A stretch of 64,000 nt of DNA. It comes from a phage. The position numbers were made by a program, and so were the translations under genes. Under the pieces are notes generated by a model. That model was not told the DNA's origin and did no database searches. It saw only the letters and a program-made list of their open reading frames with translations. Below, piece after piece: positions 1 to 21,572 of this stretch (position 1 is the first letter of the stretch; the number at the start of each line of letters is the position of its first letter). The DNA is taken from the sequence record PZ445523.1. One strand, written 5' to 3'.

Positions 1-1248
1 AGAATCTTTGAGCATATCAGTCAAAATTCCTCGGTGGTATTTTTCCATTACTAAATTAGTTTTTGTCTTAACAATTTTATCAAGTTCTTCTTGAAGCAGT
101 GCTATTTCATCAGCATGGTCAATAAACTCAGAAGATGCTTTTTCTATAGCCGCTTTAACTTTTTTAGCTTTATCTACCGTCGTGATTAGAGATTGCTTTT
201 TATTGCGAATATCATTTGCCAACGACTGTTGGGTTTTAATATTATCTCGGTATTCATCAACAAGAACTTTTAAATTATCACGATGTGTTGAAAGCTGTTC
301 AAACGAATGCGTACATTCAGAAACTTTATCTTTAATTTTAGAAACAACTTTATCACCGGAACTTAATTGTGACAAGCAGGTTGGACATAATCCACCTTCG
401 TGATACATATTAATGACTTTATTATACGAGTCAATTTTTGATTTAATTAAAACTGCTTCTTGACCGATTTTATTAAATGCATCAGTCGGGTCTTCATCTA
501 AAACAATATTAACTAATCTTTCGTTAGCTTCTTCTATTTCCGATTTTAGCGTTCTAGCTTCTTTTGCCAAATCATCATACATATTTTGCAGACGAGTAAG
601 GTTGTCACCCGTTAATTTTTTCTGGCGTTCAACGTTATCATTATATATTTTAATTTGTTGGATAATACTATCTTTTTTAACATCAAGCACTTGGTTCTGC
701 GAATTTAATTCACGTATTAGTGCTTTATTAAGCTTATCCATTTCAGCTAATGTTCCTACCTCAAGCAGGTCTTCCACAAGCTTTCTTCGCGCAGGGGTCG
801 ACAAACCCATGAAAGGGGTATACCCTGCTGTACCAAGGACAACAATCTGCTTGAAACTGGCATATGACATTCCGATAAGCTGTTCAAATTCTGCTTGGAA
901 ATCTTTACTGCTGGCAGATTCATTAAGACGTGTACCGTTAACGGTGATTTCGAAAACGTTTGGTTTTTGTCCTCTTTTGATATAGTACTTTTTCTCATCA
1001 TATTCCATCCACAGTTCAACTAAAAGTTCTTTCTTATTTGTGCTGTTTATTAATTGGCCTTTCTTTACATCACGAAATGGCTTGCCAAAAAGCCCAAATG
1101 TGATGGCTTCCAACATAGTAGACTTACCACCGCCATTTCGTCCAGTAATAAGAGTTTTTTGAACCTTATCTAATTGAATGTCAATAGGATTTCCACCTAC
1201 TGACATTATATTTTGATACCTAACTCGGTTTAGTTTAAAATTCTTCAC
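1..1248 (-). CDS. 46: Recombination endonuclease subunit gp46 (Rad50/SbcC-like ATPase); 3' end runs off the window
   Basis: Frame open from 1248 to window edge; GTG start preceded by AAGGA; Walker A GRNGGGKST; N-terminus matches recalled T4 gp46; lies downstream of gene 47. Confidence 0.85.
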   Translation of the reverse strand, partial: MKNFKLNRVRYQNIMSVGGNPIDIQLDKVQKTLITGRNGGGKSTMLEAITFGLFGKPFRDVKKGQLINSTNKKELLVELWMEYDEKKYYIKRGQKPNVFEITVNGTRLNESASSKDFQAEFEQLIGMSYASFKQIVVLGTAGYTPFMGLSTPARRKLVEDLLEVGTLAEMDKLNKALIRELNSQNQVLDVKKDSIIQQIKIYNDNVERQKKLTGDNLTRLQNMYDDLAKEARTLKSEIEEANERLVNIVLDEDPTDAFNKIGQEAVLIKSKIDSYNKVINMYHEGGLCPTCLSQLSSGDKVVSKIKDKVSECTHSFEQLSTHRDNLKVLVDEYRDNIKTQQSLANDIRNKKQSLITTVDKAKKVKAAIEKASSEFIDHADEIALLQEELDKIVKTKTNLVMEKYHRGILTDMLKDS

Positions 1249-5043: not shown

Positions 5044-5584
5044 ATAAAAAATCCAAACTAGGAGAATCGTCTACAACACTTTTCTTTTCAGCCCCCGGTG
5101 TTCTATAGGTTGATTCTTCGTAATGCGTCATTTTATCGTAGATGTCTTGAATAAAAGTTTCATCTACTAACGCAACCATATCGTCGTCACGGCTGTCATA
5201 GACATTGTGAACGAAGTAACTATATTTCTTTGCAACTTCCTTACGTTCTTTTTTAATACGTTGGACGAATGCATTAAAACAAGCTTGAGTTATATACGCA
5301 TGTGGGTTTTTATATTTCGTTTCATCAAAATTGTGAAGTCCCTTAATAGAAGCTTCTATACCATCTGCAATCATTTCTTGTTTCCAAGACTGGGTGTATC
5401 CTGAAAAGTTGAAACGTTTAGATAAGCCTTCTGCAATAAGCATAATGGCTAATCCGATAGTATCATTCTGACGAACTACTTTATTTGGGTCTTTATTATT
5501 TGCTAATTCTGTTTTCCAATCAATAATAGCTTGTAAAAGCTCTTTATTGTTTACGTAATTATATTTAGGCTTAGTTTCTGACAT
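5027..5584 (-). CDS. 55: Late-transcription sigma factor gp55
   Basis: 185 aa from ATG at 5584 ([17 protein letters not shown]...); matches T4 gp55; the ORF track starts two codons earlier at an in-frame GTG. Confidence 0.93.
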
Positions 5585-5662
5585 TTTCACCTCTTAGCTC
5601 AATTCATAGATCTATTATATCATAATATTTGAAGATCTATCTTAAAGCATAGAGGATATCAG

Positions 5663-5932
5663 TTATCTAAGTAAGCAGTATGCTTGGAACACTTTCTCCA
5701 TCATCTTTTTAAATTCATGAATATCTATGTAATGATCATTAATATCAGCGCGATATAAAAAGTCTAAAAACTTTTTATGGGTATTAGAATATTTACTTCC
5801 AGTTAATTCAGAAACATGGCTTTCCCAATATCCAACACCAGTTTTATTTGGGAAAAATGAAATTTTCATGTATTGGTCAACATAGAAAATACCAAAATTT
5901 TCAATAGCAATAGAAATATTAATTAATTTCAT
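5663..5932 (-). CDS. Hypothetical protein (89 aa)
   Basis: ORF on the early strand in the 55-nrdH interval. Confidence 0.5.
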   Translation of the reverse strand: MKLINISIAIENFGIFYVDQYMKISFFPNKTGVGYWESHVSELTGSKYSNTHKKFLDFLYRADINDHYIDIHEFKKMMEKVFQAYCLLR

Positions 5933-6144
5933 ACATTCATCAACTTAGCCGCTTCAAGAGCTGCATCTAGTGAATCAAACTGGTCAACGTATTCAATCAA
6001 TTCGCCGTAATTGGCATATAACCACCATTGGCTAAATTCATACTCAAGGATGAATCCATTTCCTTCAATTTGAGTTAAACCAATGCCGTTTGTATTTACT
6101 TCATATCCGGCAAGACGCAAATCGTTAATAAGAGCTTCGTTCAT
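5929..6144 (-). CDS. Hypothetical protein (71 aa)
   Basis: Start overlaps... stop overlaps the downstream ORF start (coupled). Confidence 0.5.
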   Translation of the reverse strand: MNEALINDLRLAGYEVNTNGIGLTQIEGNGFILEYEFSQWWLYANYGELIEYVDQFDSLDAALEAAKLMNV

Positions 6145-6153
6145 AATTATACC

Positions 6154-6474
6154 TTAGTAATTTTCAGGTCTGCAAATTTTTTTCTTGCGTTGATTTTTCA
6201 TGCGACGAATAGTTTTATCGGAAATTTCATGCTTTTGATAAGCTTTAGATTCTACACCAAAAGCTTTAACATCAAATTCTGACAAGATATATTGAACCAA
6301 CAATTCACGGATAGTGTTGCGTCCAATCTTCTGATCATTCTGTTTCATCGTCTGATGAAGCTCTTTTTCCCATTTATCCAAAATTTGAGGAGTTACAATA
6401 TCGCCTTTTTCTAGTAAAGAAACTACTTTATCATATGCGTAAGAATTGATGGCGTTTTTAATTTGAATAGTCAT
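6154..6474 (-). CDS. Hypothetical protein (106 aa)
   Basis: ORF on the early strand; basic C-terminus. Confidence 0.5.
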   Translation of the reverse strand: MTIQIKNAINSYAYDKVVSLLEKGDIVTPQILDKWEKELHQTMKQNDQKIGRNTIRELLVQYILSEFDVKAFGVESKAYQKHEISDKTIRRMKNQRKKKICRPENY

Positions 6475-6512
6475 ACATTATCCTCAATTGCGTTAAAATT
6501 TTATTATCCAAA

Positions 6513-6527
6513 AAGGGCCGAAGCCCT
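6513..6527 (-). terminator. Stem-loop with UUCG tetraloop
   Basis: GGGCUUCGGCCC on the minus-strand RNA at the end of ORF 6527..6727. Confidence 0.45.
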
Positions 6528-6727
6528 TAGCTAAACTTTTTGGCACCCTTCCAGCCTTCGTACATCATTGCGGCTGATATTAATATTGCTCCTGAGCAAC
6601 TTGAATATTTGTGATTCCAAAACCAGTTTAGAAAAACTTCGTCATCAATACCTTGGGCTATCATATTTTCAAAGAACTGACGACGAGCTTCGGCAATTCG
6701 CTGCGATAATTTAGATTCAGGATTCAT
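6527..6727 (-). CDS. Hypothetical protein (66 aa)
   Basis: ORF on the early strand followed by a tetraloop hairpin. Confidence 0.45.
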   Translation of the reverse strand: MNPESKLSQRIAEARRQFFENMIAQGIDDEVFLNWFWNHKYSSCSGAILISAAMMYEGWKGAKKFS

Positions 6728-6867
6728 TTAAATTTTCCAGTTACCGTTTTCATCAATAAATTCAATCCAGTCATTTACTGACCACTTAGTTGTATCACCT
6801 TTTTGGAGTAACATTTAAAGTGTATAACCCCTGCTTAAAAAGCATTCGTTTGATATTCATATTTTCC

Positions 6868-7161
6868 TCAGCTGTAACGATAACACTCGTTTGATTTACG
6901 TTTAGCAACTCGTTGAGATGTATTATAATCTAATTCATCGTCGATGTAAACATCTTTTTTCAACTTTCTCACTTCATTACGTAATTGACGATTTAATTCA
7001 TTCTTAACCTCTGAATCAACACCTCGCATACGTCGCCATTTATCTGAACGAAAAATGTTTTCAACCATATCTTTATGACTTACACCATCAGGAGCTTTAC
7101 GCTTTCCGAAATAGTCATAATCACGTACTTTTAAATCTTTACGACGATACGTTTTACCCAT
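6868..7161 (-). CDS. Hypothetical basic protein (start uncertain)
   Basis: Internal ATG (MGKTYRRKDLK...) avoids overlap with the upstream ORF; Lys/Arg-rich. Confidence 0.4.
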   Translation of the reverse strand: MGKTYRRKDLKVRDYDYFGKRKAPDGVSHKDMVENIFRSDKWRRMRGVDSEVKNELNRQLRNEVRKLKKDVYIDDELDYNTSQRVAKRKSNECYRYS

Positions 7162-7336
7162 GGAGTTTAATTTCCTTAGCAACTGAACTAAATACAGCAC
7201 GGTCACAAATCATCTGTTTATGTAACTTAAGTATAAGATAATAAACTTCAAAACCGTTTACATAAGTAACACGAACAACATTACCATTAATAAAATAATA
7301 TTGTCCCCTTTTAATTTCTTTATCAACCACAACCAT
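7154..7336 (-). CDS. Hypothetical protein (60 aa)
   Basis: ORF directly downstream of the early promoter at about 7367-7396. Confidence 0.45.
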   Translation of the reverse strand: MVVVDKEIKRGQYYFINGNVVRVTYVNGFEVYYLILKLHKQMICDRAVFSSVAKEIKLHG

Positions 7337-7366
7337 ATCAAATCCTCAAAGGCAATTCATATGTCA

Positions 7367-7396
7367 ATAATACCACAGTTTGAACTTGTTGTAAAC
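7367..7396 (-). promoter_or_regulatory. Early promoter (GTTTACA -35, TATTAT -10, A/T-rich upstream)
   Basis: Minus-strand GTTGTTTACA, 17-nt spacer, TATTAT; member of the repeated early-promoter family in this window. Confidence 0.5.
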
Positions 7397-7477
7397 AACT
7401 TTGTGAAAAATATTTTAGGGAATGACAAGAAGGGAACGATAGCTTAGAATGGTAATATACAGAATGCGAGAAAGAAA

Positions 7478-7492
7478 GGCCCAGAGGGCCCG
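7478..7492 (-). terminator. GC-rich stem-loop after nrdH
   Basis: ggcccagagggcc palindrome right after the nrdH stop. Confidence 0.4.
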
Positions 7493-7494
7493 TC

Positions 7495-7818
7495 TTAATC
7501 TTCTATGATATCTCTATCATATCCAAGTGAAATGAGAGTTTCTTTGAAGTGTTTAATGTTCTTTTGTCTAGAATCATTAATGAAAATGACTGGATAACGA
7601 ATGTTAAGAGATGTGAATCCAGCGCGTTTAGCAAGAGATACAATCAGTGGACGATCATACTCAATCTTACCGTTATTTGTAAGAACTTTATAGAAAGTAA
7701 AAGGAGCATTGAGCTCCTTTAGAAGTTTTGTAACTGATTGACATCCAGGACAACGACCTACTTCATCTGGAATTCCATAGACTTCAATCTTATTCTTTAA
7801 GTTCGAGTTTTGTTCCAC
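7495..7818 (-). CDS. nrdH: Glutaredoxin-like protein NrdH (start uncertain)
   Basis: CPGC redox motif in a thioredoxin-fold context (EVYGIPDEVGRCPGCQSV); lies upstream of nrdG/nrdD as in T4; ORF-track N-terminal extension rejected; GTG at 7818 is the nearest in-frame start. Confidence 0.6.
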   Translation of the reverse strand: MEQNSNLKNKIEVYGIPDEVGRCPGCQSVTKLLKELNAPFTFYKVLTNNGKIEYDRPLIVSLAKRAGFTSLNIRYPVIFINDSRQKNIKHFKETLISLGYDRDIIED

Positions 7819-8101
7819 GAGAAATAATTCCTTGGTAAGCCCAATAAGGAGGATTAACAGAATCATCACCAGAATTTTCTTCAGGGAAATAAACCTGGAT
7901 AACGAAGCCGGATTCATCAAAGGTGAAATAAGTAGTAGGCAGTTCACCTAACAAATCGGCACGAGCGTTGATTTCTTCGAGGTCTTGTTCACGTCCAGCC
8001 CAGAAGCTTGGGTTCAGACTACATTCATAGAAATAATAGTCATTACCGAACATATCAAAACCATTCCAACTCTCTACTACATACCGCTCAAAACTAATCA
8101 T
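7790..8101 (-). CDS. Hypothetical protein (103 aa)
   Basis: ORF with globular-looking composition; coupled to neighbours. Confidence 0.5.
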   Translation of the reverse strand: MISFERYVVESWNGFDMFGNDYYFYECSLNPSFWAGREQDLEEINARADLLGELPTTYFTFDESGFVIQVYFPEENSGDDSVNPPYWAYQGIISRGTKLELKE

Positions 8102-8103
8102 AA

Positions 8104-8319
8104 TTAAGCCTTTTTATCAAGAACAGCATTCAGCTTGTTAGTAATTTTATCCAGACGCTCATTGAACTCACTAGAAGATAAGCCCTTTTCTGGAGAAATT
8201 AAACTAATAACGAAAAATACAACAATAAAAGGAATAAGAAAAATAGCTCCAACTGCCATAAACAGAAAGAATGTTACAGTTGTAAGAAAATCAGCTAAAC
8301 CTTTACGAAATTTATACAT
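8104..8319 (-). CDS. Small membrane protein (71 aa)
   Basis: Two predicted transmembrane helices (FFLFMAVGAIFLIPFIVVFFVISLI). Confidence 0.5.
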   Translation of the reverse strand: MYKFRKGLADFLTTVTFFLFMAVGAIFLIPFIVVFFVISLISPEKGLSSSEFNERLDKITNKLNAVLDKKA

Positions 8320-8434
8320 ATTTTACCCTTAATTGATTAACCAAGCATTAATAAGCACTAAACTATATTGCGAATAAAATTCTGGACCAAAATGAAAAAT
8401 CATATCATTTATAGTATCCATAATGTAATTCAAT

Positions 8435-8905
8435 TTAATCATGTGTCCACCCCTCATCGGTATTTGACCAAAGTCGCTGATTATCTGATCCTCGCCACAG
8501 CTTTTTGGTAGGAAGATTTTTCTCATACTTCCCATCAATAATAACATCAACATATTTAAGCATTTCTAGTTGTTTAATATCTTCAAACTTATATCCTGTC
8601 CACAACCAAATGCTTTTATTGGGATAAAGATTTTTAATAGTTTGAACCACAGAGTGAATCACGTCTCTGTTATCAGGATAAAGAGGGTCTCCTCCAGTTA
8701 TAGTTAATCCTTCTATATAATCATTATTCAAACATTCAATTAATTGCTCTAGTGTTTCACCAGTGAATGGAATGCCATTTCTAGCATTCCATGTTGATTT
8801 ATTATAACACCCTTCACATTTATGCAAACAACCTGTAACGAAAAGAACGACCCTGCAACCAGGGCCATTCACAAAATCGCAAGGATAAAATCTATCATAA
8901 TTCAT
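8435..8905 (-). CDS. nrdG: Anaerobic ribonucleotide reductase activating enzyme (radical SAM)
   Basis: 156 aa; CxxxCxxC radical-SAM cluster (CLHKCEGC); matches T4 NrdG; start overlaps nrdD stop. Confidence 0.92.
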   Translation of the reverse strand: MNYDRFYPCDFVNGPGCRVVLFVTGCLHKCEGCYNKSTWNARNGIPFTGETLEQLIECLNNDYIEGLTITGGDPLYPDNRDVIHSVVQTIKNLYPNKSIWLWTGYKFEDIKQLEMLKYVDVIIDGKYEKNLPTKKLWRGSDNQRLWSNTDEGWTHD

Positions 8906-10719
8906 TGGTGTTTAACCCTATGCATGATTTCTTTATTTTTACCGAGATTAAATCCGCGTTCGTTCGGATTTCCCAAATAACCACATGTTCTTCTTATTGT
9001 GTTCATCTTTTTAGGATCAGTTTCTCCACAAATAGAACAAACAAATCCGTTTTCAGTAGGAGTCATTTCATGGGTACTTCCGCATGTAAAACATTTATCT
9101 ACCGGCATGTTAACACCAAAATAATCTAAATGTTGTGCAGCATAATCCCATACGGCCTCAAGACCTTTTAAGTTATTTTTCATATCAGGAAGTTCAACAT
9201 AAGAAATGTGACCACCTGTCGCAATGAAATGATATGGTGCTTCGCGGGAAATCTTTTCAAACGGAGTAATATTTTCTTCTACTGAAACATGGAAACTGTT
9301 AGTGTACCAGCCTTTATCGGTAACATCTTTTACGCTTCCATATTTTTCGGTATCGAGTTTACAGAAGCGATAACAAAGGTTTTCAGCAGGAGTCGAATAT
9401 AAACTAAAAGCAAATCCGGTTCTTTCAGTCCACTGTTTAAGATGAGCATTCATTTTAGTTAAAATTTCTCGTCCAATATCACGACCGACAAGAATATTCA
9501 ATTCGTGAATACCAATGTATCCTAAAGACACTGAACTTCTACCATTTTTAAATAACTCAATTATGTCGTCATCAGGTTTAAGACGAACCCCGAATGCACC
9601 TTCTTGGTAAAGAATAGGAGCAACAGTTGCTTTAACTCCTTTTAAGGAACTAATTCTACACATCAAAGCTTCAAAACACAAATCCATTCGTTCATTAAAT
9701 AGCTCAACAAATTTCTGTTCATTGAACTGTGTTCCAATATAAGAATCTAACGCGATGCGAGGAAGATTCAGTGTTACAACACCAAGATTATTACGTCCAT
9801 CAAGAATTTCATTGCCAGTCGAATCTTTCCATACGCTCAAGAAACTACGGCAACCCATTGGAGAAACAGGAACAGATGAACCAGTGATAGCTTTATTGTT
9901 CTTAGCTGAAATAATATCAGGATACATCCTTTTGCTTGCACACTCTAGAGCAAGCTGTTTAATATCATAGTTCGGATCGTCTTTATAAAGATTAACACCT
10001 TCTTCAACAAACATAACAAGCTTAGGGAAAATAGGAGTTATCCCATCACGACCAAGACCTTTAATACGATTTTTCAGAATTGCTTTCTGAATCATTCGTT
10101 CAGTCCAGTCAGTTCCCGTACCAAATGTAATTGTTACAAAAGGCGTTTGTCCGTTTGAACTAAAGAGAGTATTTACTTCATATTCATAAGCTTGGAATGC
10201 ATCGTATACGTCTTTTTCTGTTTTAGATTGAGCATAATTCAACGCATCGGCGATTTGCCATTTTTCTGCATCCTCAATGTGTTTTGCATAGGTGCGTTTA
10301 ACATAAGGAGAAAGTACTTTATCTACATTCGCAAAAGTCGTTCCGCCGTATTGGTGAGAAGCAACCTGCGCAGTAATTTGTGCCATAATCGCAGTAGCAA
10401 CGCCAATTGATTTAGGGGTTTCAATCTGCGCATTACCTAGCTTAAATCCGTTCTCAAGCATTCCTTTTAAATCTACTAAACAGCAATTAGTAAATGGAAG
10501 AGCAGGGGAATAATCAATATCGTGGAAATGGATAATTCCGCTTTCATGTGCTTTCATAATAAAAGACGGGACCATATTTTTGGCAATGTGTTTAGACACA
10601 ATACCAGCCATAAGGTCCCGTTGAGTTGGAAAAACACGAGAATCTTTATTAGCATTCTCGTTTAAAAGGTCTTTATTAGTTTTATGAATCAATCCTTCAA
10701 TTTCTTTTTCAATTGTCAT
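8902..10719 (-). CDS. nrdD: Anaerobic ribonucleoside-triphosphate reductase (class III RNR), uninterrupted
   Basis: 605 aa continuous ORF; C-terminal glycyl-radical region and Zn-ribbon cysteines (CFTCGSTHEMT...CSICG); length matches spliced T4 NrdD. Confidence 0.95.
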   Translation of the reverse strand: MTIEKEIEGLIHKTNKDLLNENANKDSRVFPTQRDLMAGIVSKHIAKNMVPSFIMKAHESGIIHFHDIDYSPALPFTNCCLVDLKGMLENGFKLGNAQIETPKSIGVATAIMAQITAQVASHQYGGTTFANVDKVLSPYVKRTYAKHIEDAEKWQIADALNYAQSKTEKDVYDAFQAYEYEVNTLFSSNGQTPFVTITFGTGTDWTERMIQKAILKNRIKGLGRDGITPIFPKLVMFVEEGVNLYKDDPNYDIKQLALECASKRMYPDIISAKNNKAITGSSVPVSPMGCRSFLSVWKDSTGNEILDGRNNLGVVTLNLPRIALDSYIGTQFNEQKFVELFNERMDLCFEALMCRISSLKGVKATVAPILYQEGAFGVRLKPDDDIIELFKNGRSSVSLGYIGIHELNILVGRDIGREILTKMNAHLKQWTERTGFAFSLYSTPAENLCYRFCKLDTEKYGSVKDVTDKGWYTNSFHVSVEENITPFEKISREAPYHFIATGGHISYVELPDMKNNLKGLEAVWDYAAQHLDYFGVNMPVDKCFTCGSTHEMTPTENGFVCSICGETDPKKMNTIRRTCGYLGNPNERGFNLGKNKEIMHRVKHQ

Positions 10720-11839: not shown

Positions 11840-12160
11840 TTATAGCGTAATCCATTCTCGTACTGTCTGAATTACTACACGTTCTCGAAGCTCAACCAGT
11901 TCAACGGTAGGAACTGCATAATACCAGTCAGAATGGTAAGAACCTGAGCGAGATTCATTTACAGAAACATATACGTGGTGTTTTGGGCTAAAGTAAATTA
12001 CTCGACGATATTGGCATTTGCCTTGTTGAGTCCATTCTTCGGATTCAATCTGAATAAGATAGTCGGAAAAATCGAAATCATAGTTTTCCGAAAATGCATC
12101 ATGGTCTTCGATGATTTCACTCAGAACTGCATCAACATCTAATTTATTTTCAATAGTCAT
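11840..12160 (-). CDS. Hypothetical protein (106 aa)
   Basis: ORF on the early strand between nrdC and pin. Confidence 0.5.
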   Translation of the reverse strand: MTIENKLDVDAVLSEIIEDHDAFSENYDFDFSDYLIQIESEEWTQQGKCQYRRVIYFSPKHHVYVSVNESRSGSYHSDWYYAVPTVELVELRERVVIQTVREWITL

Positions 12161-12821: not shown

Positions 12822-13064
12822 TTATTCCTTAATTCCTAGTACTTGTTTGAAGGTCTCAGTATAATCGGAGTATTGACCGGTTTGTTCTTTATATTTGTTC
12901 ATAATATCATAAACTTCTAAACGCATATTATTATACGAACGGGTTAAAGCGGATTTCAATACTGAATAACTATCCGGAAATTTACCATGTTCTTTATAAT
13001 AGGCCAGAGTTAATTCACGGACCGCTTTATCAGCAGTCTCAAGATATTCTTTACGCTTTGCCAT
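12822..13064 (-). CDS. Hypothetical protein (about 80 aa, start uncertain)
   Basis: Internal start [15 protein letters not shown]... chosen; the longer ORF-track version overlaps the upstream gene. Confidence 0.4.
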
Positions 13065-13365
13065 TTTCTTCTCGCTCAAATCGGTGTTTACAATGGCGAC
13101 ATTTATAACGAAGATTATTAGTCTGCCAATGGACCAATTGCACCTGTTCAGTTCCACATTCAGGGCAATTAGGAACGTTTTTAGAAGCCCTTTCGCGACG
13201 TTCAATCATGACCATTACAGAATCCCAATTAACAGGAGGGCTATAATCATCACAACCATGAATCTTTCCACGCATTTCCAGATCGTCTTCTTCACCAGCC
13301 ATAATAATTTTAATTAAACTGGAATTACTTGAAGCTGCAATGTCTTCTAATAGACGCTTTTTCAT
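13051..13365 (-). CDS. Zinc-ribbon protein (104 aa)
   Basis: CPECG...CRHCKH four-cysteine zinc-ribbon pattern. Confidence 0.5.
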
Positions 13366-14288
13366 TTCAATACCTCAATAGCATTACGTAAACCATTTGC
13401 TTTGGCGGTTAAAGCCTTAAGAACTTTAGTATGCTCTTCAATTTGTTTTTCAACTTCAATCAAACGAGCATTGAGATATTCGCGTTCTTCTTTCATAGTA
13501 TCATTTCCATGATTGGATTTTGGTGTAGGTTTAAATTCACTAGGGTCCTTTAATTTAATAACAAATTTAGTTTCAAACAGTGAAAGACCATAATTCGTAT
13601 TATCATCAAAGGATTTGACTACATCCATATCAGATAATAACACGCGCAAATTATAAGCCAAAGAACTAATAGTTTCATTGTGTTTATTAGCTTCGCGTGG
13701 TTTCATATACGGAAGATTTTTATATATCTCATGCGGAGCGCAAACGATAATTGACAATTCAAATTGTCCATTCTGGGACGATGGAGTGAATTTAGCCGTA
13801 ACCCAGTCTTTTACATTCACATTAATAGTACGGTTATCACCATGACAAAACAGTCTACGAGAATGCTTAAAAAGCATATTCACGTTATTATTGAATTCGT
13901 GTGAAAATTCACTAGCAAATTTTTCTTTACTATCTTTAGAAAACCATTCTTCTAAATAAGTTCTTTTCACGTCGTTAATAATATTAAATGTAACAACATT
14001 AGCATTTGATACATTAGTCTCAATGTAGCTTGGATACATAAATTTTTTAACATTATTAACAGCTATCACAGAAGATAGTAATCGGGAACGTTTGAACCAC
14101 TCGAGCAAAGAACCAAGAGAATGTGAATACGCATTTTGTGTATCTTTACAAATATGGTTTTCCCATCCAATATAGTCTAAAAAATCACGAAGAATATTAT
14201 TGATTACTGCTCTGTGTCCGATCTGATAATTACGGTGTTTAGTAATAAGACTGTCAAAATAATCAATATAATGTTTACGAGTTTTCAT
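13362..14288 (-). CDS. Hypothetical protein (308 aa) with C-terminal coiled coil
   Basis: First of four tandem 300-350 aa ORFs; C-terminal heptad segment ([42 protein letters not shown]). Confidence 0.55.
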   Translation of the reverse strand: MKTRKHYIDYFDSLITKHRNYQIGHRAVINNILRDFLDYIGWENHICKDTQNAYSHSLGSLLEWFKRSRLLSSVIAVNNVKKFMYPSYIETNVSNANVVTFNIINDVKRTYLEEWFSKDSKEKFASEFSHEFNNNVNMLFKHSRRLFCHGDNRTINVNVKDWVTAKFTPSSQNGQFELSIIVCAPHEIYKNLPYMKPREANKHNETISSLAYNLRVLLSDMDVVKSFDDNTNYGLSLFETKFVIKLKDPSEFKPTPKSNHGNDTMKEEREYLNARLIEVEKQIEEHTKVLKALTAKANGLRNAIEVLK

Positions 14289-14340
14289 GTTCTTCTCACT
14301 TGGTTAATGGTTTATACTCCGAGCCATCCTTGGCTTTAAA

Positions 14341-15342
14341 TTACTTAATTAACTGTAAAGCTTGTTCAAGACGATCCAGGCGATTAACAGATTCTTCCCA
14401 AATCCTTTTAGCCTGCTCATATTCTTTCTGTGCTTTATTAGAAATTTCTAGAACTTCTTTATAAGCTTTTTCTAGTGCAATAACTTCTGGACGAATTTCT
14501 ATCGGTTCAGGTGAATCGTCAAGACATTCCATTAGTTCCTCAAGGGTAGTTTCTTCTTTAGGAGTATTCACAATTTCATCACATTTTTGCTGGTAAATTT
14601 CTTTATCAGTCGGTGAGTACGCACACTTTACTTCACGAAGACTAACTACAATTTTATATCCTTCCCAACCGCATATATTCTTAAAAGGATAAGTATGAAT
14701 ATTTTCTACTGTTTCCATACAAAGTAATGCAGTCTCTAACTGACGAGTTATATCACTAGCAATTGAGAAAAATTTATTAATGTTCTTTTGATTAGCTTCT
14801 GGTGTAAAAAATTCATAATTCACAAAAATAGCTGCTTTATTTTTATCAAGTTCATATTCTTTTATGATAATCATATCAGAAGCCAAAGGATGAATTTGAC
14901 GATAATCGCCATAACATAATTTAGAAGCTGATTTTAGAATTTGCTTCTTGAAAAGTCTAAAATTACTAACCCAACGACGAGTAAAAATATTCTCAGGGTC
15001 TTCTTTATTATTAAGATGATAAGAATTAACATCACCGAACCAGCTGTATCCTACTACATTTTTAGTTCGTTTAATTTCTTTCCCAAATTTACTAAGAATA
15101 TCTTGATTAACTAAATATGAAAGAAGACGAGACTCTTTAAAGGTTTTCTTGATATTATCTTTATCTACACGGCTAGAAATTTTACGAATTTCATGAATAA
15201 ATTTAGCAGAAGAAACAATACCTGCATCAACACTATTGAGCCATTGATTGATAATAGAAAGAACGCTATTTTGGCCAAACATCGGTATAGCTTTACCATC
15301 AATAACGCTATTGAATGATTTGATATATTCGTTACGAGTCAT
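14341..15342 (-). CDS. Hypothetical protein (about 333 aa) with C-terminal coiled coil
   Basis: Start reset to MTRNEYIK downstream of promoter and GAGGAG; the ORF-track N-terminus is promoter read-through. Confidence 0.55.
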   Translation of the reverse strand: MTRNEYIKSFNSVIDGKAIPMFGQNSVLSIINQWLNSVDAGIVSSAKFIHEIRKISSRVDKDNIKKTFKESRLLSYLVNQDILSKFGKEIKRTKNVVGYSWFGDVNSYHLNNKEDPENIFTRRWVSNFRLFKKQILKSASKLCYGDYRQIHPLASDMIIIKEYELDKNKAAIFVNYEFFTPEANQKNINKFFSIASDITRQLETALLCMETVENIHTYPFKNICGWEGYKIVVSLREVKCAYSPTDKEIYQQKCDEIVNTPKEETTLEELMECLDDSPEPIEIRPEVIALEKAYKEVLEISNKAQKEYEQAKRIWEESVNRLDRLEQALQLIK

Positions 15343-15370
15343 AATAATCTCCTCAGTAGAAAGTAAGAAC

Positions 15371-15400
15371 ATTATACCACATCCTTGTGGCAAAGTAAAC
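15371..15400 (-). promoter_or_regulatory. Early promoter (GTTTAC -35, TATAAT -10)
   Basis: Minus-strand GTTTAC, about 17-nt spacer, TATAAT; upstream of ORF 14341..15342. Confidence 0.5.
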
Positions 15401-16422
15401 TAGTTCAGTGCATTTAGTGCATTGTTCAGTTTAGAACGTTGCTTTGCCAGATTTTGAACCCTTGACTGCGCTTGTTCTAACACCTTTTCAGCTTCTAGCA
15501 CTTCATTGGTCGCTTTAACGAGTTCATCATCTACTGCCTTAAGAGACTTCTCAATCGCATCAGCGTGCCATTTTTCTACAGGTTTAAAATTTGAATTTTC
15601 AGTAGGAAGAAAATTCACTTTATTAAGTTTACATGCATCTATATTGCTTGAGCTATACATCCAAAATTTAGGATCGTTTGAGGAGTAATTAGATGAATTT
15701 AAGGTATCTTGCACTTCCTGCTTTTTCTCTTGAACAACTTCGTCCTTTCTCAAAAATTCATATTTAAATGAAACGACCATATCAAGTTCATATGTTGTTG
15801 TGTCTAATTTAAATCGTTCGAAATGCCGCGAAATCCTAGACTGAACACCAGCAACAACATCCATATACTTAAATGCTTCTGTCAACTGTGATTTAAGGCA
15901 TTCACAAATTGAAAGAGAATTTTTTGTATTAGGTTTAAAGCTAATTCGTGCAGTTCTATTATTTTCTTTTAACGGTCTTACTTCCATCTGAAGAGTATAA
16001 CCATCAAATTTAAGATTCTTTAAGTTAATATCAGAACCTTTTAATCGACTAGCAGTAGACAAAATTTGCTTTAATTGTTTACGGAATAAAGCAATAAATC
16101 TCCATTCAAGACGATAATGATTTGGATTAAAAAATCCAGTTGATAGATCGGTCTTACTTTGACCAACGCCTCGAACAAATAGAGGATTTTTATAATCAAT
16201 AGTTTTACAGAAATCAACGAGCTGCTCGCGAGCAGTCATTTGTGTAATATACCCTGATTCATTAAAATTACGCACCCATTCACTGCTGTTCAGATGTTTA
16301 AAGGCGTGAATGGAACAATTAACTTTATTAAGGTCTAAATTATTTTCACACAAAAATGTCATAACATCACGATTATAGCTGGCATTACGAACCATATCTT
16401 CAATTTGAGAACGAGTTTTCAT
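15400..16422 (-). CDS. Hypothetical protein (340 aa) with C-terminal coiled coil
   Basis: Third member of the tandem set; N-terminus MKTR as in 13362..14288. Confidence 0.55.
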   Translation of the reverse strand: MKTRSQIEDMVRNASYNRDVMTFLCENNLDLNKVNCSIHAFKHLNSSEWVRNFNESGYITQMTAREQLVDFCKTIDYKNPLFVRGVGQSKTDLSTGFFNPNHYRLEWRFIALFRKQLKQILSTASRLKGSDINLKNLKFDGYTLQMEVRPLKENNRTARISFKPNTKNSLSICECLKSQLTEAFKYMDVVAGVQSRISRHFERFKLDTTTYELDMVVSFKYEFLRKDEVVQEKKQEVQDTLNSSNYSSNDPKFWMYSSSNIDACKLNKVNFLPTENSNFKPVEKWHADAIEKSLKAVDDELVKATNEVLEAEKVLEQAQSRVQNLAKQRSKLNNALNALN

Positions 16423-16430
16423 GGTGTTCC

Positions 16431-17345
16431 TTAAGATTTAAGTAAATCAACAATTTTAATTAACTTTTCACGCTCAGATTTAGCTTTACTACTCAGTCCA
16501 GATAGTCTGAAAATTTCATCGTCATATTGTTGAATAGAAATATTCAGCTCTTCAATTTGCTTATTAAAATAATCAATTTGCTCAGAATGTTTTTCGTTAC
16601 TACGAACTGGTGCAGGTTTTGTAGGCAATTTAGTTGAACTGGATTCATCCGGGCGATAAATTAAAATACAATTTGAACCAATCGGGCATTTAGCACCAGA
16701 CACATATTCTAATGTTCCAGCTTCTTTTAAAACTTCAAAAGCTAAACAGAGATGATGCCCCATATTAACATAATCTGTAGAGCGAGCTCTGATGTAATAA
16801 TCATCTCCACGAGTACTAAATTTAAAGCATTTAAGGTCTTCTGTATTATTAGTTTTAAAAATCATTTGTTTATCTAGACCTTTAGCTAATCGAGCGCCTA
16901 ATGCTAATAATCGTCGTTGATTTTCCCACAAATCCGCAATCATTTGGTCGAATGATAATTTCGGCATTAGTCGGCCATAAAGGTCATATCCTTTATTATA
17001 ATTACGAAGGATTTCACTCGCGTTAATACGAGACAATGCTCCAATTTTATTAAGGGCTTTCATAATGCGATTAGATAAACTCATTCCAGACCCATTTGTT
17101 CGCTGTAAATGTTTTTCTAATCCAAATCCAATATCAACTTTAAATTTATCTAAAATTTCAGCATGAACATCTCTGTCAATAACATTCAAATCCAAAGTTG
17201 GGTTAAATCTATGAAAAAATTTATCTGGCTCTCCACGACGAAATACAGTCCATTCATTCATCATTTTTTTATTAACTAAGGATTTAATTACTGCATTGAC
17301 ATTATTAATTACTACTGACATATTTTCCTCACTCAATTTTACCAA
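16431..17345 (-). CDS. Hypothetical protein (304 aa) with C-terminal coiled coil
   Basis: Fourth member of the tandem set; C-terminal heptad segment. Confidence 0.55.
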   Translation of the reverse strand: MVKLSEENMSVVINNVNAVIKSLVNKKMMNEWTVFRRGEPDKFFHRFNPTLDLNVIDRDVHAEILDKFKVDIGFGLEKHLQRTNGSGMSLSNRIMKALNKIGALSRINASEILRNYNKGYDLYGRLMPKLSFDQMIADLWENQRRLLALGARLAKGLDKQMIFKTNNTEDLKCFKFSTRGDDYYIRARSTDYVNMGHHLCLAFEVLKEAGTLEYVSGAKCPIGSNCILIYRPDESSSTKLPTKPAPVRSNEKHSEQIDYFNKQIEELNISIQQYDDEIFRLSGLSSKAKSEREKLIKIVDLLKS

Positions 17346-17730
17346 TTACGCGGAATAAGATTGAACAGACTATATAAGTACCACATATAGATTGAACTAA
17401 TGCCATTCCAAAGAACCAAACAATATTATCAAACCATGTCTGTTTTACGTCGAAAGGACGTAAACTTACAGTAATATTATCACCTTTTTCTATTGATGAA
17501 TACATCTCTGGGGAAATATATTCACTAAATCTATAACCGTCTTTGAGTTCATATACGGCAATAAACGATAAACTAGACCCCTTTCCTTGAGTTCCTGTAA
17601 GGGTATTAACTACAGGAACATCATAATCTTTATAATGCATATAATCATTAATTGCGTAATAACCATATGCAATTACTATACATAAACAACATATCAATAA
17701 ATTCAATCTTTTAATTATCAACTGTTTCAT
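17329..17730 (-). CDS. Membrane protein (133 aa)
   Basis: N- and C-terminal hydrophobic helices; directly downstream of an early promoter. Confidence 0.5.
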   Translation of the reverse strand: MKQLIIKRLNLLICCLCIVIAYGYYAINDYMHYKDYDVPVVNTLTGTQGKGSSLSFIAVYELKDGYRFSEYISPEMYSSIEKGDNITVSLRPFDVKQTWFDNIVWFFGMALVQSICGTYIVCSILFRVIGKIE

Positions 17731-17759
17731 AATAATCTCAATTAAAAGGGCTTAGAACC

Positions 17760-17786
17760 ATTATACCATCCTTGGTATAAAGCGGT
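17760..17786 (-). promoter_or_regulatory. Early promoter (TATAAT -10)
   Basis: Minus-strand TTTATAC...TATAAT upstream of ORF 17329..17730. Confidence 0.4.
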
Positions 17787-18313
17787 TATGCGAGTACCGT
17801 CTTTAACCGTTCTTCAAACTTCCGAAGAGTATTCTGGCGTTCAGCTCTTTGCTTTTTGTAAGTTTCAATACGCTCTGAAATGAGAGTGTATCGTTCATTT
17901 ACTGATTCTTTCATAAAATCAGGAATTTCACGAGAAGCTTTAATCTCGTCAAATTTATCAATAACAGCTTGCTCTTCAGCAATTAAGTTATCATACATCA
18001 AAATATCTTTCTTGATGAACTCAATATCTTCTTGAGTTACACGAGATAACTTAGATGCTTTATCCTTTTTGTACTGTTCGTTAGTATCACGAGACCAGTG
18101 TAATGTACGATTTTTATTCGTATTCTTGTAAATTTCTACAATACCAATCTCATCAATAATAACGATCCAATTCCAACGGGATTTGTAAATTTGTCCTCCA
18201 TCAACAGTGATTTCACCTCCGATTGAGATGTCATTAAAGAACTTGCTTTGTGCTTCAGATTTAAATTTACCATCGTTGTAATTTACCAGGTTGAAAATAT
18301 CTTTAGCGTTCAT
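17786..18313 (-). CDS. Hypothetical protein (about 175 aa) with C-terminal coiled coil
   Basis: Start reset to MNAKDIF after GGAGGAAC; the upstream 20 codons in the ORF track translate the promoter block. Confidence 0.5.
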   Translation of the reverse strand: MNAKDIFNLVNYNDGKFKSEAQSKFFNDISIGGEITVDGGQIYKSRWNWIVIIDEIGIVEIYKNTNKNRTLHWSRDTNEQYKKDKASKLSRVTQEDIEFIKKDILMYDNLIAEEQAVIDKFDEIKASREIPDFMKESVNERYTLISERIETYKKQRAERQNTLRKFEERLKTVLA

Positions 18314-18337: not shown

Positions 18338-18371
18338 TTGTATAGTACCACAGAGGAACGGTCTTGTAAAC
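18338..18371 (-). promoter_or_regulatory. Early promoter with conserved downstream block
   Basis: Minus-strand GTTTACA, 17-nt spacer, GGTACTATACAACTATCAAC block, then GGAGG and ATG. Confidence 0.5.
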
Positions 18372-18758: not shown

Positions 18759-19478
18759 TTATGATTCTTCTAAATGTCTTTTCTGAAAAGTTGATACCAT
18801 ACTACGATAAGGTTCATTTGGATACCCGTGTTTTATAGCTTCCTTTGTAAATTTTCTCCATCCGTATTTAGTTTCTTTCCAAAGCTCGAATAATTCATCT
18901 TCATACTGCCATATAGTTAAATGAGAACGCTTTGCAGCTTTAATTCCATTAATGTGCTTTTCTTTTACTGTAGGATTGCTTAGTGTCTTTTTAATAATAT
19001 TACTAACTTTTCTAACAAAAGCTGGGTCCTTATATCGTTGTGAAGTTTTTATTGAAGTGTTTAATTTAGCTTCCGGCGTGGATGTGACCTCTTTCATCTT
19101 TTTCTTCATATGCTCTATATGATTAGGATTTTTCCATAAATTTATAGAATGCTTTTTACATTTTATCCTAGTTTCATCTGCAACCTTTCCTCCTTCACCC
19201 CCATATGACAGGTTAACGCAGTTTTTTCCATATTTCAATTTACCTGCCATGATATATAATATTTCGGCTTGTACCATTTTATCATAATTATCAAAAACTT
19301 CTAAAACCGTTTTTGATAATATATGGTCATTTGACACTTTTACACGTTCTATATAATTTCCACTACCAACATACGAATCATTGATGTTATTAGTTATATG
19401 TCGACCATAATAGTATTTCTTAATACCTGTCTTTAAATTTAATATTTCAGTTTTATAGATAGTAAAATATTTTTTCAT
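18759..19478 (-). CDS. GIY-YIG homing-endonuclease-like protein (Seg/Mob-like)
   Basis: N-terminal GIY-YIG-type pattern (IYKTE...YYGRH...YVGSG) resembling segB; basic C-terminal region. Confidence 0.55.
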   Translation of the reverse strand: MKKYFTIYKTEILNLKTGIKKYYYGRHITNNINDSYVGSGNYIERVKVSNDHILSKTVLEVFDNYDKMVQAEILYIMAGKLKYGKNCVNLSYGGEGGKVADETRIKCKKHSINLWKNPNHIEHMKKKMKEVTSTPEAKLNTSIKTSQRYKDPAFVRKVSNIIKKTLSNPTVKEKHINGIKAAKRSHLTIWQYEDELFELWKETKYGWRKFTKEAIKHGYPNEPYRSMVSTFQKRHLEES

Positions 19479-20443
19479 TTTAATAATACCGTTTCAGCAA
19501 TTTCTTCCCAATGGTTTTTGTCGGTCATAATAAAGTCAGCAAGATAAAGTGCAGTACGCAGTGAAACATTGCGTAAACGATTAACATTGACTTTCATCCA
19601 TGATAATGCTTTATAAGTTTCTTCATCAGAAAGACCGCGCTTTTGCATCATGTCAGTTGAAAGAATAACATCTTCAACCCTGACCATAATTTCTTCATTA
19701 GTGTGAACACCCAAATCTAAATAAACTGAGCGGGACACTAATGCTTGTAAATGTGGAGCAAGTTTAGTACCACGGTCTAATTCGCGGTCAATATCAACGT
19801 TTGTGATAAAAACAATCGTTCCTTTAAATTCAAACTCACGCTCAATGCCTTTTTCTTCTAAGTAAGAAGATGCAGTGCTCCAGCAGACTTTACGGGTCTC
19901 TCCAGTGTCCAGAGCAGCTTTCAGAAGATTAAGAATGTCCATATCAGAGAAAACATCCACATCATCAATCAAAAGGACAGAATTCTCTTCACGATTATTC
20001 CAAAGCTGTTCATAAAGACCGATACCAGAGATTTTACCATTAATGCTTTTATACTCAATGTATCCAATATCATTTGCTTTATTCAAAGCTTTATCTAAAG
20101 AATACGTTTTACCAATACCTGCCGCACCAGAGATAATTAATGAACGAATGTTTCCGTTAATAATACCATTCGTCATCATTCCCATAACATTAAATCTTTT
20201 ATTAATGCGGGTTTTCATATCTTCATATGATTCTTTAACTTCTTCAACTTTTACACCATCATATGAAATGTCTGATTTGTAAACCCAAACACCGCGACGT
20301 TTACCATCAATTTCAACAAAAACTTTACCGTCTCCTTGTGCATCTACCGGAGCATTATCTGGGAACCATTCGCCTAAGAGCTCAAAAGTTCCAGAAATTT
20401 CTTTACCGAAGTAGATACCCTTATTGATAGTTACAGTTTTCAT
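19475..20443 (-). CDS. P-loop NTPase (AAA-like ATPase)
   Basis: Walker A GAAGIGKT and Walker B VLLIDDVD; start reset to MKTVTINKG after GGAG; ORF-track extension is promoter read-through. Confidence 0.6.
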   Translation of the reverse strand: MKTVTINKGIYFGKEISGTFELLGEWFPDNAPVDAQGDGKVFVEIDGKRRGVWVYKSDISYDGVKVEEVKESYEDMKTRINKRFNVMGMMTNGIINGNIRSLIISGAAGIGKTYSLDKALNKANDIGYIEYKSINGKISGIGLYEQLWNNREENSVLLIDDVDVFSDMDILNLLKAALDTGETRKVCWSTASSYLEEKGIEREFEFKGTIVFITNVDIDRELDRGTKLAPHLQALVSRSVYLDLGVHTNEEIMVRVEDVILSTDMMQKRGLSDEETYKALSWMKVNVNRLRNVSLRTALYLADFIMTDKNHWEEIAETVLLK

Positions 20444-20473
20444 TTTATTCTCCAAATCCGTATCAGTTGATAG

Positions 20474-20507
20474 TTGTATAGTACCATAAAGCTTTATGCT
20501 TGTAAAC
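20474..20507 (-). promoter_or_regulatory. Early promoter with conserved downstream block
   Basis: Minus-strand A/T-rich upstream, GTTTACA, TACTATAC block; upstream of the ATPase gene. Confidence 0.5.
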
Positions 20508-20536
20508 AACTTTGTGAAAAATTTTTGAAATAAAAA

Positions 20537-20556
20537 AGGGGAGCCCGAAGGCTCCC
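20537..20556 (-). terminator. Stem-loop terminator after the nucleotidyltransferase-like gene
   Basis: Minus-strand GGGGAGCCUUCGGGCUCCCC followed by a U-rich run. Confidence 0.55.
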
Positions 20557-20558
20557 CA

Positions 20559-21572
20559 TCATTTATAATAACTTCGGTGGTTTTCAAGATAGACCTTCTC
20601 AAGGAAGTCATCCCAGAAACTCATGTCTACTTTTTGCTGCATACCGTTCTTAGAAGCTTCAGTAGATGCTGCTTCTACTTGATCGACCACATCTTCCAAA
20701 AACTCTTGAACCGTTTTAAATGGATGTTTACCCAACTTCACGTCGAGAATAAATGGAGCATCTTGGAGTGGATAAATCAAGTCGCCAGTTTTGTAAATTT
20801 CCAATAGTTGAAGTCCACCACGACAAGCATGGCTCAGAGCTTTCCAGTCAATACCTTCATTGGCTTCAGCCTTACGAGCACGTTCACCGTATTCAGCATC
20901 TAATTTGTTCAGTGACTGCTTAAGCTCAATAAGAGAAAGCGTTGTCTGATATTTACGACCCAACACAGTGTAGAACGTTTGTGGGCCTGTTTTCTCATGA
21001 TTATGGAACACCCATTCACAGAATTCGTTTTCTGGAAGACGATGCTTAATATCTTCAACTTTAGTGCGACGCTGCTTAATAGAACCATCTTCTTGGTAAT
21101 CAACCCATTGCTCAGGGATTTGATTAACTACTTTCAATACATCACGTAATGCAGCCAAACGAGAACCCTTGACACCGTATTTAGAAGCTTGCTTGCGGAC
21201 ATATCCTAAATATGATTTCATGTTAGTCGTATAAAAACGAGAACGGTTGTCTTGAATAAACTTCCACACATCAGGCAAATCAGATTTAACCACTAGTTCA
21301 GGTGGAGTGTGAAGCATATCTAATGCTACAGTTTCACCATCTGCTGCTAATTTAAAGAAATATTTAAGACTGTATAGTTCATGGTCAATATCATCTTTAG
21401 TGTTTTTAGATGATGTGTTGTTAGTGTTTTTACTCATATGCTCTTTAACATTTCCGATAAGAATATCGCGAGCAGGAGGAACAAAGATTTCTTTAAAATC
21501 TACATCAGATTCTGGGGTAGAAGTTCCATAAAGATGACTACCAAAATAGCTTTTCATTACTGTTTTCATCAT
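20559..21572 (-). CDS. Pol-beta superfamily nucleotidyltransferase-like protein (337 aa)
   Basis: N-terminal GS-x9-DxD motif (GSHLYGTSTPESDVDF) typical of minimal nucleotidyltransferases; large C-terminal extension. Confidence 0.5.
   Translation of the reverse strand: MMKTVMKSYFGSHLYGTSTPESDVDFKEIFVPPARDILIGNVKEHMSKNTNNTSSKNTKDDIDHELYSLKYFFKLAADGETVALDMLHTPPELVVKSDLPDVWKFIQDNRSRFYTTNMKSYLGYVRKQASKYGVKGSRLAALRDVLKVVNQIPEQWVDYQEDGSIKQRRTKVEDIKHRLPENEFCEWVFHNHEKTGPQTFYTVLGRKYQTTLSLIELKQSLNKLDAEYGERARKAEANEGIDWKALSHACRGGLQLLEIYKTGDLIYPLQDAPFILDVKLGKHPFKTVQEFLEDVVDQVEAASTEASKNGMQQKVDMSFWDDFLEKVYLENHRSYYK

Follow-up and report, generated by a model that had tools for sequence, protein, structure and literature searches.

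What are the four medium-sized genes that stand in tandem upstream of nrdC in T-even phages, how are they related to each other, and what might they do? The question is raised by positions 13362–17345 of a 64,000-nucleotide stretch of phage DNA (sequence record PZ445523.1; the whole stretch is termed the window), for which the original prediction, made from the sequence alone, described a diversifying paralogue array. The source of the window is a T-even phage: positions 13000–17800 share 96.5% DNA identity with T2 and ∼ 95% with T4, and have hundreds of matches in Tequatrovirus. Comparison with the T4 annotation showed that the four open reading frames (ORFs), all on the minus strand, are orthologues of T4 nrdC.3 (13362–14288, 308 residues, 92.9% amino acid identity), nrdC.4 (14341–15342, 333 residues, 94.3%), nrdC.5 (15400–16422, 340 residues, 88.5% over the full length) and nrdC.6 (16431–17321, 296 residues, 98.6%). 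The coordinates first given for three of the tandem ORFs are retained, and the start of the fourth is moved from 17345 to 17321. The TTG start at 17345 in the ORF list overlaps nrdC.7, and since the T4 annotation and a Shine–Dalgarno arrangement (GAGG-N6-ATG) both point to the ATG at 17321, this is the more likely start.

The genes themselves are already known: they have long been annotated as T4 ORFs and belong to Pfam and PHROG families, and for one of them a function is published. What appears to be new is the finding that all four share one fold as paralogues, have a constrained coiled-coil-type tail and form part of a syntenic Straboviridae family. The searchable literature contained no paper for nrdC.3 or nrdC.6, and nothing on the relationship between the four genes or on their shared tail.

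Relationship between the four array proteins

An all-against-all comparison by plain BLASTP found NrdC.3 and NrdC.4 as the sole pair (24.5% over 200 residues), so that comparison of profiles was needed. When profiles built from the homologues of eight phages together with database matches were compared using hhalign, NrdC.3 and NrdC.4 were paired with a probability of 96–98% over about 200–225 columns, NrdC.3 and NrdC.5 with 64–88%, collinear over essentially the full length, and NrdC.4 and NrdC.5 with 45–75%, again collinear. Hidden Markov models (HMMs) of the families also cross-matched within the window, the NrdC.4 model finding NrdC.3 with an E-value of 3.9e-13 and the NrdC.5 model finding NrdC.3 with an E-value of 1.8e-4. 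In the joint alignments of the NrdC.3, NrdC.4 and NrdC.5 types (A1 and A3) the Arg of an N-terminal (K)TR motif is invariant across 20–25 relatives, which explains why NrdC.3 and NrdC.5 both begin MKTR, as had been noticed at the outset, and why NrdC.4 begins MTR. Also visible are an FR...ILK.ASR helix in the central part, the motif MD-VVE and a terminal L..A. As judged from these profiles, NrdC.3, NrdC.4 and NrdC.5 are full-length, very diverged homologues. Together, the profile similarity and the joint-alignment motifs indicate that the N-terminal regions, rightly described as divergent, are diverged copies of one fold rather than unrelated heads; the picture of a common module attached to divergent heads gives way to one of whole-length paralogy. 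The nearby nrdC.10 and nrdC.11 were considered as further members and ruled out, having neither the tail nor any similarity.

NrdC.5 matches the Pfam family DUF7235 (PF23882) with 371 bits (E-value 5.8e-111) over model positions 1–307 of 307, against a gathering threshold of 30 bits; NrdC.3 reaches 12.3 bits, in the tail only, and NrdC.4 and NrdC.6 give no match, so that by sequence the 15400–16422 product alone among the four is a DUF7235 member. The PHROG family phrog_1435 matches both NrdC.3 (E-value 4.8e-101) and NrdC.4 (1.8e-166). A precomputed PF26897 label is carried by close NrdC.4 homologues and by a natural fusion of NrdC.5 to NrdC.3 described below. NrdC.6 matches phrog_2257 (3.3e-151), and all 109 of the NrdC.6 homologues found bear the label PF26899.

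Whether NrdC.6 belongs with the other three requires separate consideration. It shows no significant HMM or hhalign signal with NrdC.3, NrdC.4 or NrdC.5, its N-terminus reads MS..IN instead of KTR, it evolves much more slowly and it has a Pfam family of its own; all of this would suit a family consisting of nrdC.3/4/5 only, with the adjacency, length and helical tail of NrdC.6 arising by coincidence or convergence. Set against this, the AlphaFold2 models of NrdC.5 and NrdC.6 share the same order of elements, namely N-terminal helices, a helix pair, a β-hairpin, a helix, a second β-hairpin, a low-confidence linker and a long C-terminal helix. The non-significant hhalign alignment of NrdC.6 is itself collinear, and lands on two motifs that are found in all four proteins. 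Moreover, Foldseek searches with the two models converge on the same three remote proteins, all of them Straboviridae viral proteins matched at near full-length coverage: A0A345AUV5 (E-values of 1.9e-6 with NrdC.5 and 1.1e-6 with NrdC.6), A0A2Z4QAR2 (2.4e-6 and 2.8e-4) and A0A1V0DXL6 (3.1e-4 and 2.9e-4). NrdC.6 also has the same type of tail and the same terminal motif as the others, and genera with three members always retain one gene of the NrdC.6 type beside genes of the NrdC.5 and NrdC.3/NrdC.4 types. Because of the predicted element order, the shared motifs, the common remote matches, the tail and the synteny, NrdC.6 is very probably a paralogue of NrdC.3, NrdC.4 and NrdC.5, and a family without it is judged improbable.

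Bridging NrdC.6 to the other three by sequence, through single-copy relatives, failed. Scans of viral contigs for bridges returned few full-length relatives, two for a Klebsiella-phage query and three for an Aeromonas-phage one; members of the Klebsiella-phage family are 95–100% uniform. One protein (P0214) suggested as a bridge by its length turned out to be another member of the TR type.

The C-terminal tails and the rates of change along the proteins

Heptad periodicity was scored as the best 42-residue window in the whole protein, with F and Y allowed as core residues, and compared with 300 shuffles per protein; an earlier scoring, in which the core set was narrow and the window 35 residues long, had missed the NrdC.4 tail and under-scored that of NrdC.6, and was replaced. 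The best window of the whole sequence proved to be the C-terminal tail in all four array proteins, which bears out the heptad-repeat C-termini originally described. The NrdC.3 tail (residues 263–308; 13365–13502, minus strand, as are all the tails) ends in LRNAIEVLK, and its best window, 263–304, has hydrophobic residues at 10 of 12 a/d positions (0 of 300 shuffles). The NrdC.5 helix (residues 281–340; 15403–15582) ends in LNNALNALN, and window 286–327 scores 12 of 12 (z score 5.9; 0 of 300). For the NrdC.6 tail (residues 246–296; 16434–16586), ending in LIKIVDLLKS, the corresponding values are 10 of 12 in window 246–287 and 1 of 300. The NrdC.4 tail (residues 286–333; 14344–14487), ending in LEQALQLIK, is marginal, with 9 of 12 in window 289–330 and 10 of 300 shuffles. 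Each protein is thus predicted to end in a helix of 45–60 residues with heptad periodicity, strong in NrdC.3, NrdC.5 and NrdC.6 and marginal in NrdC.4. A canonical coiled coil is expected to show a/d periodicity over at least five heptads in a predicted continuous helix; the tails agree with this, NrdC.4 marginally, and structure prediction, made for NrdC.5 and NrdC.6, places helices at both C-termini. The AlphaFold2 model of NrdC.5 has a single unbroken helix at residues 281–339 (predicted local distance difference test, pLDDT, of 79–90 by block over 301–340), and that of NrdC.6 has helices at 246–272 and 278–295, interrupted at SGLSS.

The four proteins have a terminal motif in common, L-x-x-A/I-h-x-h-L/I-K. 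Written as L..[AIV][LIVM].[LIVMA][LIM][KN] and sought in the last 12 residues, it occurs in 4 of the 127 window ORFs that reach 80 residues or more, exactly the array four; since the motif was derived from these proteins, its absence from the remaining 123 is all that counts as a control. By C-terminal heptad score the array proteins rank first, second, fifth and sixth among 90 ORFs, and ranks three and four are held by the adjacent nrdC.1 and nrdC.8. The latter (17786–18313, minus strand, 175 residues) has a heptad-like C-terminal helix (9 of 12 a/d positions, 4 of 300 shuffles). It does not resemble the array proteins, and its counterpart in Mosigvirus shares 73% identity with it; a role as partner of the array is conceivable, as is that of simply one more early protein with a helical tail.

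In the multi-genus alignment A1 the NrdC.4 tail is shorter than those of NrdC.3 and NrdC.5 by a 7-column gap, that is by exactly seven residues or one heptad, so that the coiled-coil register is preserved. Comparisons of tail-only profiles across families did not reach significance (hhalign probability of 18% or less), and the relatedness of the tails therefore rests on register, length and terminal motif. Beyond the last nine residues no exposed residues are common to the tails of different families.

Pairwise ratios of nonsynonymous to synonymous substitution rates (dN/dS, by the Nei–Gojobori method, window against T4 and Ozark) are 0.19–0.35 for nrdC.3, 0.17–0.21 for nrdC.4, 0.19–0.35 for nrdC.5 and 0.05–0.13 for nrdC.6, compared with 0 for gp49 and nrdC and 0–0.12 for nrdC.7, nrdC.8 and nrdC.9. 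Hence nrdC.3/4/5 evolve faster than the surrounding genes, yet the ratio stays below 1 throughout and NrdC.6 is conserved, so that the word ‘diversifying’ holds only in part. The hot spots are the N-terminal helical region and linker of NrdC.5 (dN/dS of about 0.5) and the α/β core of NrdC.3; the 11.5% of residues at which NrdC.5 of the window differs from T4 lie mostly in that helical region and linker. In every family the tail ranks lowest in variability, or close to lowest, by both entropy and dN/dS. It has the lowest entropy in NrdC.3, a dN/dS of 0.04–0.06 in NrdC.4, and in NrdC.6 it is 100% identical across the window, T4 and Ozark.

Allele replacement, deletion and fusion account for much of the variation in the array, which is a hot spot of recombination and deletion. 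In Tequatrovirus nrdC.3 exists as two allele classes, with 138 records at 90% identity or above and 294 at about 60%; between the classes the core is 45% identical, the N-terminus 77% and the tail 84%. Copy number differs even inside Tequatrovirus; in phage ACG-C40 (4501–4716) a deletion leaves no more than nrdC.6 and a 71-residue stump of nrdC.5. Two natural in-frame fusions were found, one joining NrdC.5 residues 146–272 to the C-terminal half of NrdC.3 (P0056), the other, Manna_094 of Salmonella phage Manna (3715–4752), joining NrdC.6 residues 1 to about 269 to NrdC.4 residues 251–333 at a shared D-E-I; both retain an intact family tail at the end.

Two further observations concern allelic variation at the locus. 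In the T2 record LC348380 nrdC.4, nrdC.6 and nrdC.2 are fragmented, and loss of nrdC.4 and nrdC.6 in T2 was considered; in the T2 record MH751506 nrdC.6 is intact (296 residues) and nrdC.4 has 313 residues. As the fragments are not reproduced there, gene loss in T2 is not claimed, and the discrepancy is probably a difference of sequencing or annotation rather than a sign of real pseudogenes. The window's nrdC.1 (12822–13064, minus strand) is a divergent allele (78.8% amino acid identity and a synonymous divergence, dS, of 0.88 against T4), although T4 and Ozark are 98.8% identical in this gene; lying beside an nrdC that is 100% identical, it points to local allele replacement.

A possible role against host defences

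A function has been published for one of the four genes. An evolved T4 clone with compensatory deletions became unable to infect ECOR17, plasmid-expressed T4 nrdC.5 restores the plating of the deletion mutant on MG1655 carrying ECOR17 dsr1, and Dsr1 is a SIR2 defence protein that T4 nrdC.5 counteracts (Srikant, Guegler and Laub, 2022, eLife, PMC9391042). This places the function of the array in the area of phage–host conflict, broadly where the first suggestion of host-takeover or exclusion proteins had put it, with the evidence pointing to anti-defence instead. The NrdC.5 of the window, 88.5% identical to the T4 protein over 340 residues and encoded at the same position between nrdC.6 and nrdC.4, is predicted by this orthology to have anti-Dsr1 activity. 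No follow-up to the NrdC.5–Dsr1 finding was found in the searchable literature, and DSR1 is still described as poorly characterised in a paper of 2026. The tetratricopeptide repeat (TPR) sensor of Dsr1 has been reported to recognise the major capsid protein (2026 preprint, PMC12803255), and recognition of a late protein suits an early, pre-emptive blocker. In addition, gene 49.2 of T6 is a published inhibitor of the OLD defence nuclease (PMC13096335), and with it adjoining the array the region looks like an anti-defence neighbourhood. Given the paralogy, NrdC.3, NrdC.4 and NrdC.6 become good anti-defence candidates.

The reading that we somewhat favour is that the four genes encode early accessory anti-defence proteins, dispensable and of the host-range type, which are whole-length paralogues, and in which a flexible linker leads from a variable head to a tail that self-associates in a family-specific way. 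Each protein would comprise an N-terminal helical region, a two-layer α/β core (helix pair, β-hairpin, helix, β-hairpin), a low-confidence flexible linker of variable length and an amphipathic heptad helix of 45–60 residues. Their accessory status is indicated by copy numbers of one to four, by the ACG-C40 deletion and by the two fusions that retain a tail. The genes would be expressed early, as suggested by T4 early-promoter-like sites on the coding strand. One of these, GTTTAC-N17-TATAAT, lies at 15371–15399 in the spacer between nrdC.5 and nrdC.4, and another, TTTACA-N17-TACTAT, at 18342–18370 upstream of nrdC.8, both on the minus strand and both identified by consensus match; the latter is a possible start of a transcript through nrdC.8, nrdC.7, nrdC.6 and nrdC.5. 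Binding to a specific host immune target would be the task of the fast-evolving head and linker, and for NrdC.5 this target would be the SIR2 NAD-hydrolysing enzyme Dsr1, contacted at the TPR sensor or the effector domain before the late capsid protein can trigger it. The conserved tail would self-associate as a family-specific coiled coil or helical bundle, giving a multivalent blocker of high avidity. If this idea of tail-driven multivalency is right, it would stand as a general principle in the design of phage inhibitors directed at oligomeric immune sensors, and would help to explain why closely related therapeutic phages differ in host range. Direct target binding and the anti-defence roles of NrdC.3, NrdC.4 and NrdC.6 are steps that we infer, and no surprising mechanism is demonstrated.

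The tail is the part for which other roles come most readily to mind, and the original prediction had left open whether it was a module for oligomerisation or for docking. If it were a docking module, all four proteins would attach to one common host or phage partner and the heads would bring different activities. The terminal motif common to all four, tail lengths that are equal within one heptad, strong purifying selection on the tails and the invariance of many non-core positions in NrdC.6 all fit such a scheme. Yet no candidate for the common partner was identified, and the dissimilarity of the tails between families, in exposed residues upstream of the last nine and in the tail-only profiles, is not what a single partner would be expected to leave. 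Tails that are conserved within families and, the terminal motif apart, different between them point to homotypic association rather than to docking on one partner common to all, and docking is accordingly considered unlikely; that the tails are coiled-coil-like and constrained is supported.

A third role for the tail would be as the ligand itself, the long helix, perhaps with the linker, inserting into the groove of a TPR or solenoid sensor and the head serving as scaffold. TPR grooves often bind helices or extended peptides, and tails that are specific to each family and conserved within it would fit. The sensor of Dsr1, given here as an example, is a TPR array (PMC12803255). An arms-race surface is, however, expected to be the most variable part of a protein, and here the tail varies least and the head and linker most, which argues against the tail as that interface; a regular hydrophobic a/d stripe is also more typical of self-association. 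Binding through the tail thus seems distinctly improbable.

Several observations weigh against the favoured anti-defence reading itself. Only NrdC.5 among the four has a phenotype, from one paper and with no mechanism (PMC9391042). The tie to NrdC.6 runs through models of moderate confidence (pLDDT 68 and 76) and transitive Foldseek matches with template modelling (TM) scores of 0.3–0.46, the hhalign probability against NrdC.3, NrdC.4 and NrdC.5 being 5% or less with no HMM cross-match. The heptad signal of NrdC.4 is marginal, the NrdC.6 tail has a Gly-containing break, and analysis of electrostatic pairing at e/g positions was uninformative on homo- versus hetero-association. The dN/dS ratio is below 1 in every gene and region, and the rate of nrdC.6 is housekeeping-like. 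Finally, the isoelectric points of NrdC.3, NrdC.4, NrdC.5 and NrdC.6 are 9.1, 6.9, 9.1 and 9.2 (net charges +7, 0, +9 and +9), and basic proteins, with isoelectric points of about 9, would also suit binding to nucleic acid. A role in host takeover in general, with the proteins acting early and binding nucleic acid or the transcription machinery and with an indirect Dsr1 phenotype of NrdC.5, is a view to which we give little weight. Anti-restriction proteins of the acidic DNA-mimic type (Ocr/ArdA) were ruled out, the array proteins not being strongly acidic.

A bolder form of the anti-defence reading is also conceivable, in which the array is a set of multivalent sensor blockers on one scaffold, each head directed against a different bacterial immune sensor, with homo- or mixed oligomers acting as a multi-specific hub and the scaffold diversifying beside nrdC throughout Straboviridae. 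This extension is regarded as doubtful.

Genomic setting, relatives and known systems

The neighbours of the array are gp49 endonuclease VII, NrdC glutaredoxin, nrdC.1, nrdC.2, nrdC.8, nrdC.9, nrdC.10 and nrdC.7, a predicted membrane protein. A 106-residue ORF at 11840–12160 (minus strand) is a candidate gene 49.2 by position and size as in T4. Between nrdC.9 and nrdC.10 lies a 239-residue ORF for a Seg-like GIY-YIG homing endonuclease (18759–19478, minus strand); it has no counterpart at that position in T4T, copies 98–100% identical occur in RB7, T4_ev151 and ESh34, and ∼ 67 phage records carry it at 90% identity or above. The 378-residue ORF at 19475–20611 (minus strand) is an over-extended nrdC.10, the true start of which is at ∼ 20443 (MKTVTINKG), giving 322 residues with weak Pfam matches to AAA/STAND NTPases. 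A ‘GTIQLST’ pseudo-translation upstream of both nrdC.10 and nrdC.8 coincides with TTTACA-N17-TACTAT early-promoter-like sites (20478–20506 and 18342–18370), and a strong GC hairpin terminator is found just upstream, at 20538–20557.

Comparison of copy number across related phages, which had been proposed as a check, showed a syntenic family upstream of nrdC in several Straboviridae genera, with one to four copies. Next to nrdC, Dhakavirus and Gaprivervirus carry genes of the NrdC.6, NrdC.5 (289–297 residues) and NrdC.4 types, and Mosigvirus carries NrdC.6 (331 residues), NrdC.5 (310–319) and NrdC.3 (316) types. Acinetobacter phage Acj61 (Twarogvirinae) has tandem genes for 330 and 304 residues in this position, lengths that match the Foldseek hits E5E4A1 and E5E4A2; both products have heptad tails, ending in ...TLNKALEIMML and ...ILAKALVVSEARLNKK. 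A single copy stands next to nrdC in Karamvirus PS49 and likewise in Klebsiella phage Roth34, whose record gives no genus; the PS49 protein matches the NrdC.6 HMM with an E-value of 7.9e-7. The slot next to nrdC holds no copy in Krischvirus GEC-3S or Slopekvirus KP15, in both of which a possible relative is present elsewhere in the region, as judged from a coiled-coil-like tail and, in KP15_227, also from an N-terminal KTRKE. The place directly upstream of nrdC in KP15 (5422–7992) is taken, with no array, by NadV, a nicotinamide phosphoribosyltransferase of NAD+ salvage, and a DNA methyltransferase; Acj61 has NadV with a ribose-phosphate pyrophosphokinase (6229–8938) ∼ 30 kb from its nrdC. These genes might offer the phages another means of countering defences that deplete NAD.

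When 1.84 billion representative proteins were searched exhaustively with the NrdC.3/NrdC.4/NrdC.5 HMM, no more than 20 matched, all of these three types; several more diverged ones among them still begin M(x)TR and end L..A...K. Sequence searches of PADLOC, NCBIfam and the PDB with the array proteins returned nothing meaningful. As far as sequence comparison reaches, the family is confined to phages, and between genera its evolution is so fast that similarity in sequence is lost. The analysis turns three orphan genes of T4, the best-studied phage, into testable anti-defence candidates, extends these to relatives from T4-like therapy phages, among them those of Acinetobacter, Klebsiella and Aeromonas, and offers a structural prediction in which the head would bind the target, the linker would be flexible and the tail would self-associate.

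How does the array compare with known systems? Some 60–100 residues match the RNA polymerase α N-terminal domain/Rpb11-like dimerisation fold and the phage tail terminator fold at 4–15% identity, and the N-terminal helical region, linker and tail are without counterpart in either; on the predicted structures this looks like a resemblance of fold rather than membership. In sequence and fold the array proteins also proved dissimilar to DSAD1 of phage SPbeta. The likeness to DSAD1 lies in the role, that of a phage protein neutralising a SIR2-domain NAD-hydrolysing defence protein, there DSR2; DSAD1 is described as binding the sensor region of DSR2 in competition with the phage trigger. The T-even anti-defence islands, such as the dmd-tifA-adfA ‘anti-TA (toxin–antitoxin) island’ and gp49.2 next to nrdC, are likewise clusters of small to medium early accessory genes that vary between phages and are rearranged through microhomology recombination, each gene acting against a different host system. 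They consist of unrelated genes, whereas the array consists of four adjacent paralogues, NrdC.6 very probably included, which share one fold and have a C-terminal helix in common. With T4 NrdC.5 the correspondence is direct: the DUF7235 protein encoded at 15400–16422 is its orthologue in the same position, NrdC.3 and NrdC.4 are its paralogues and NrdC.6 a probable one, all with the same predicted architecture.

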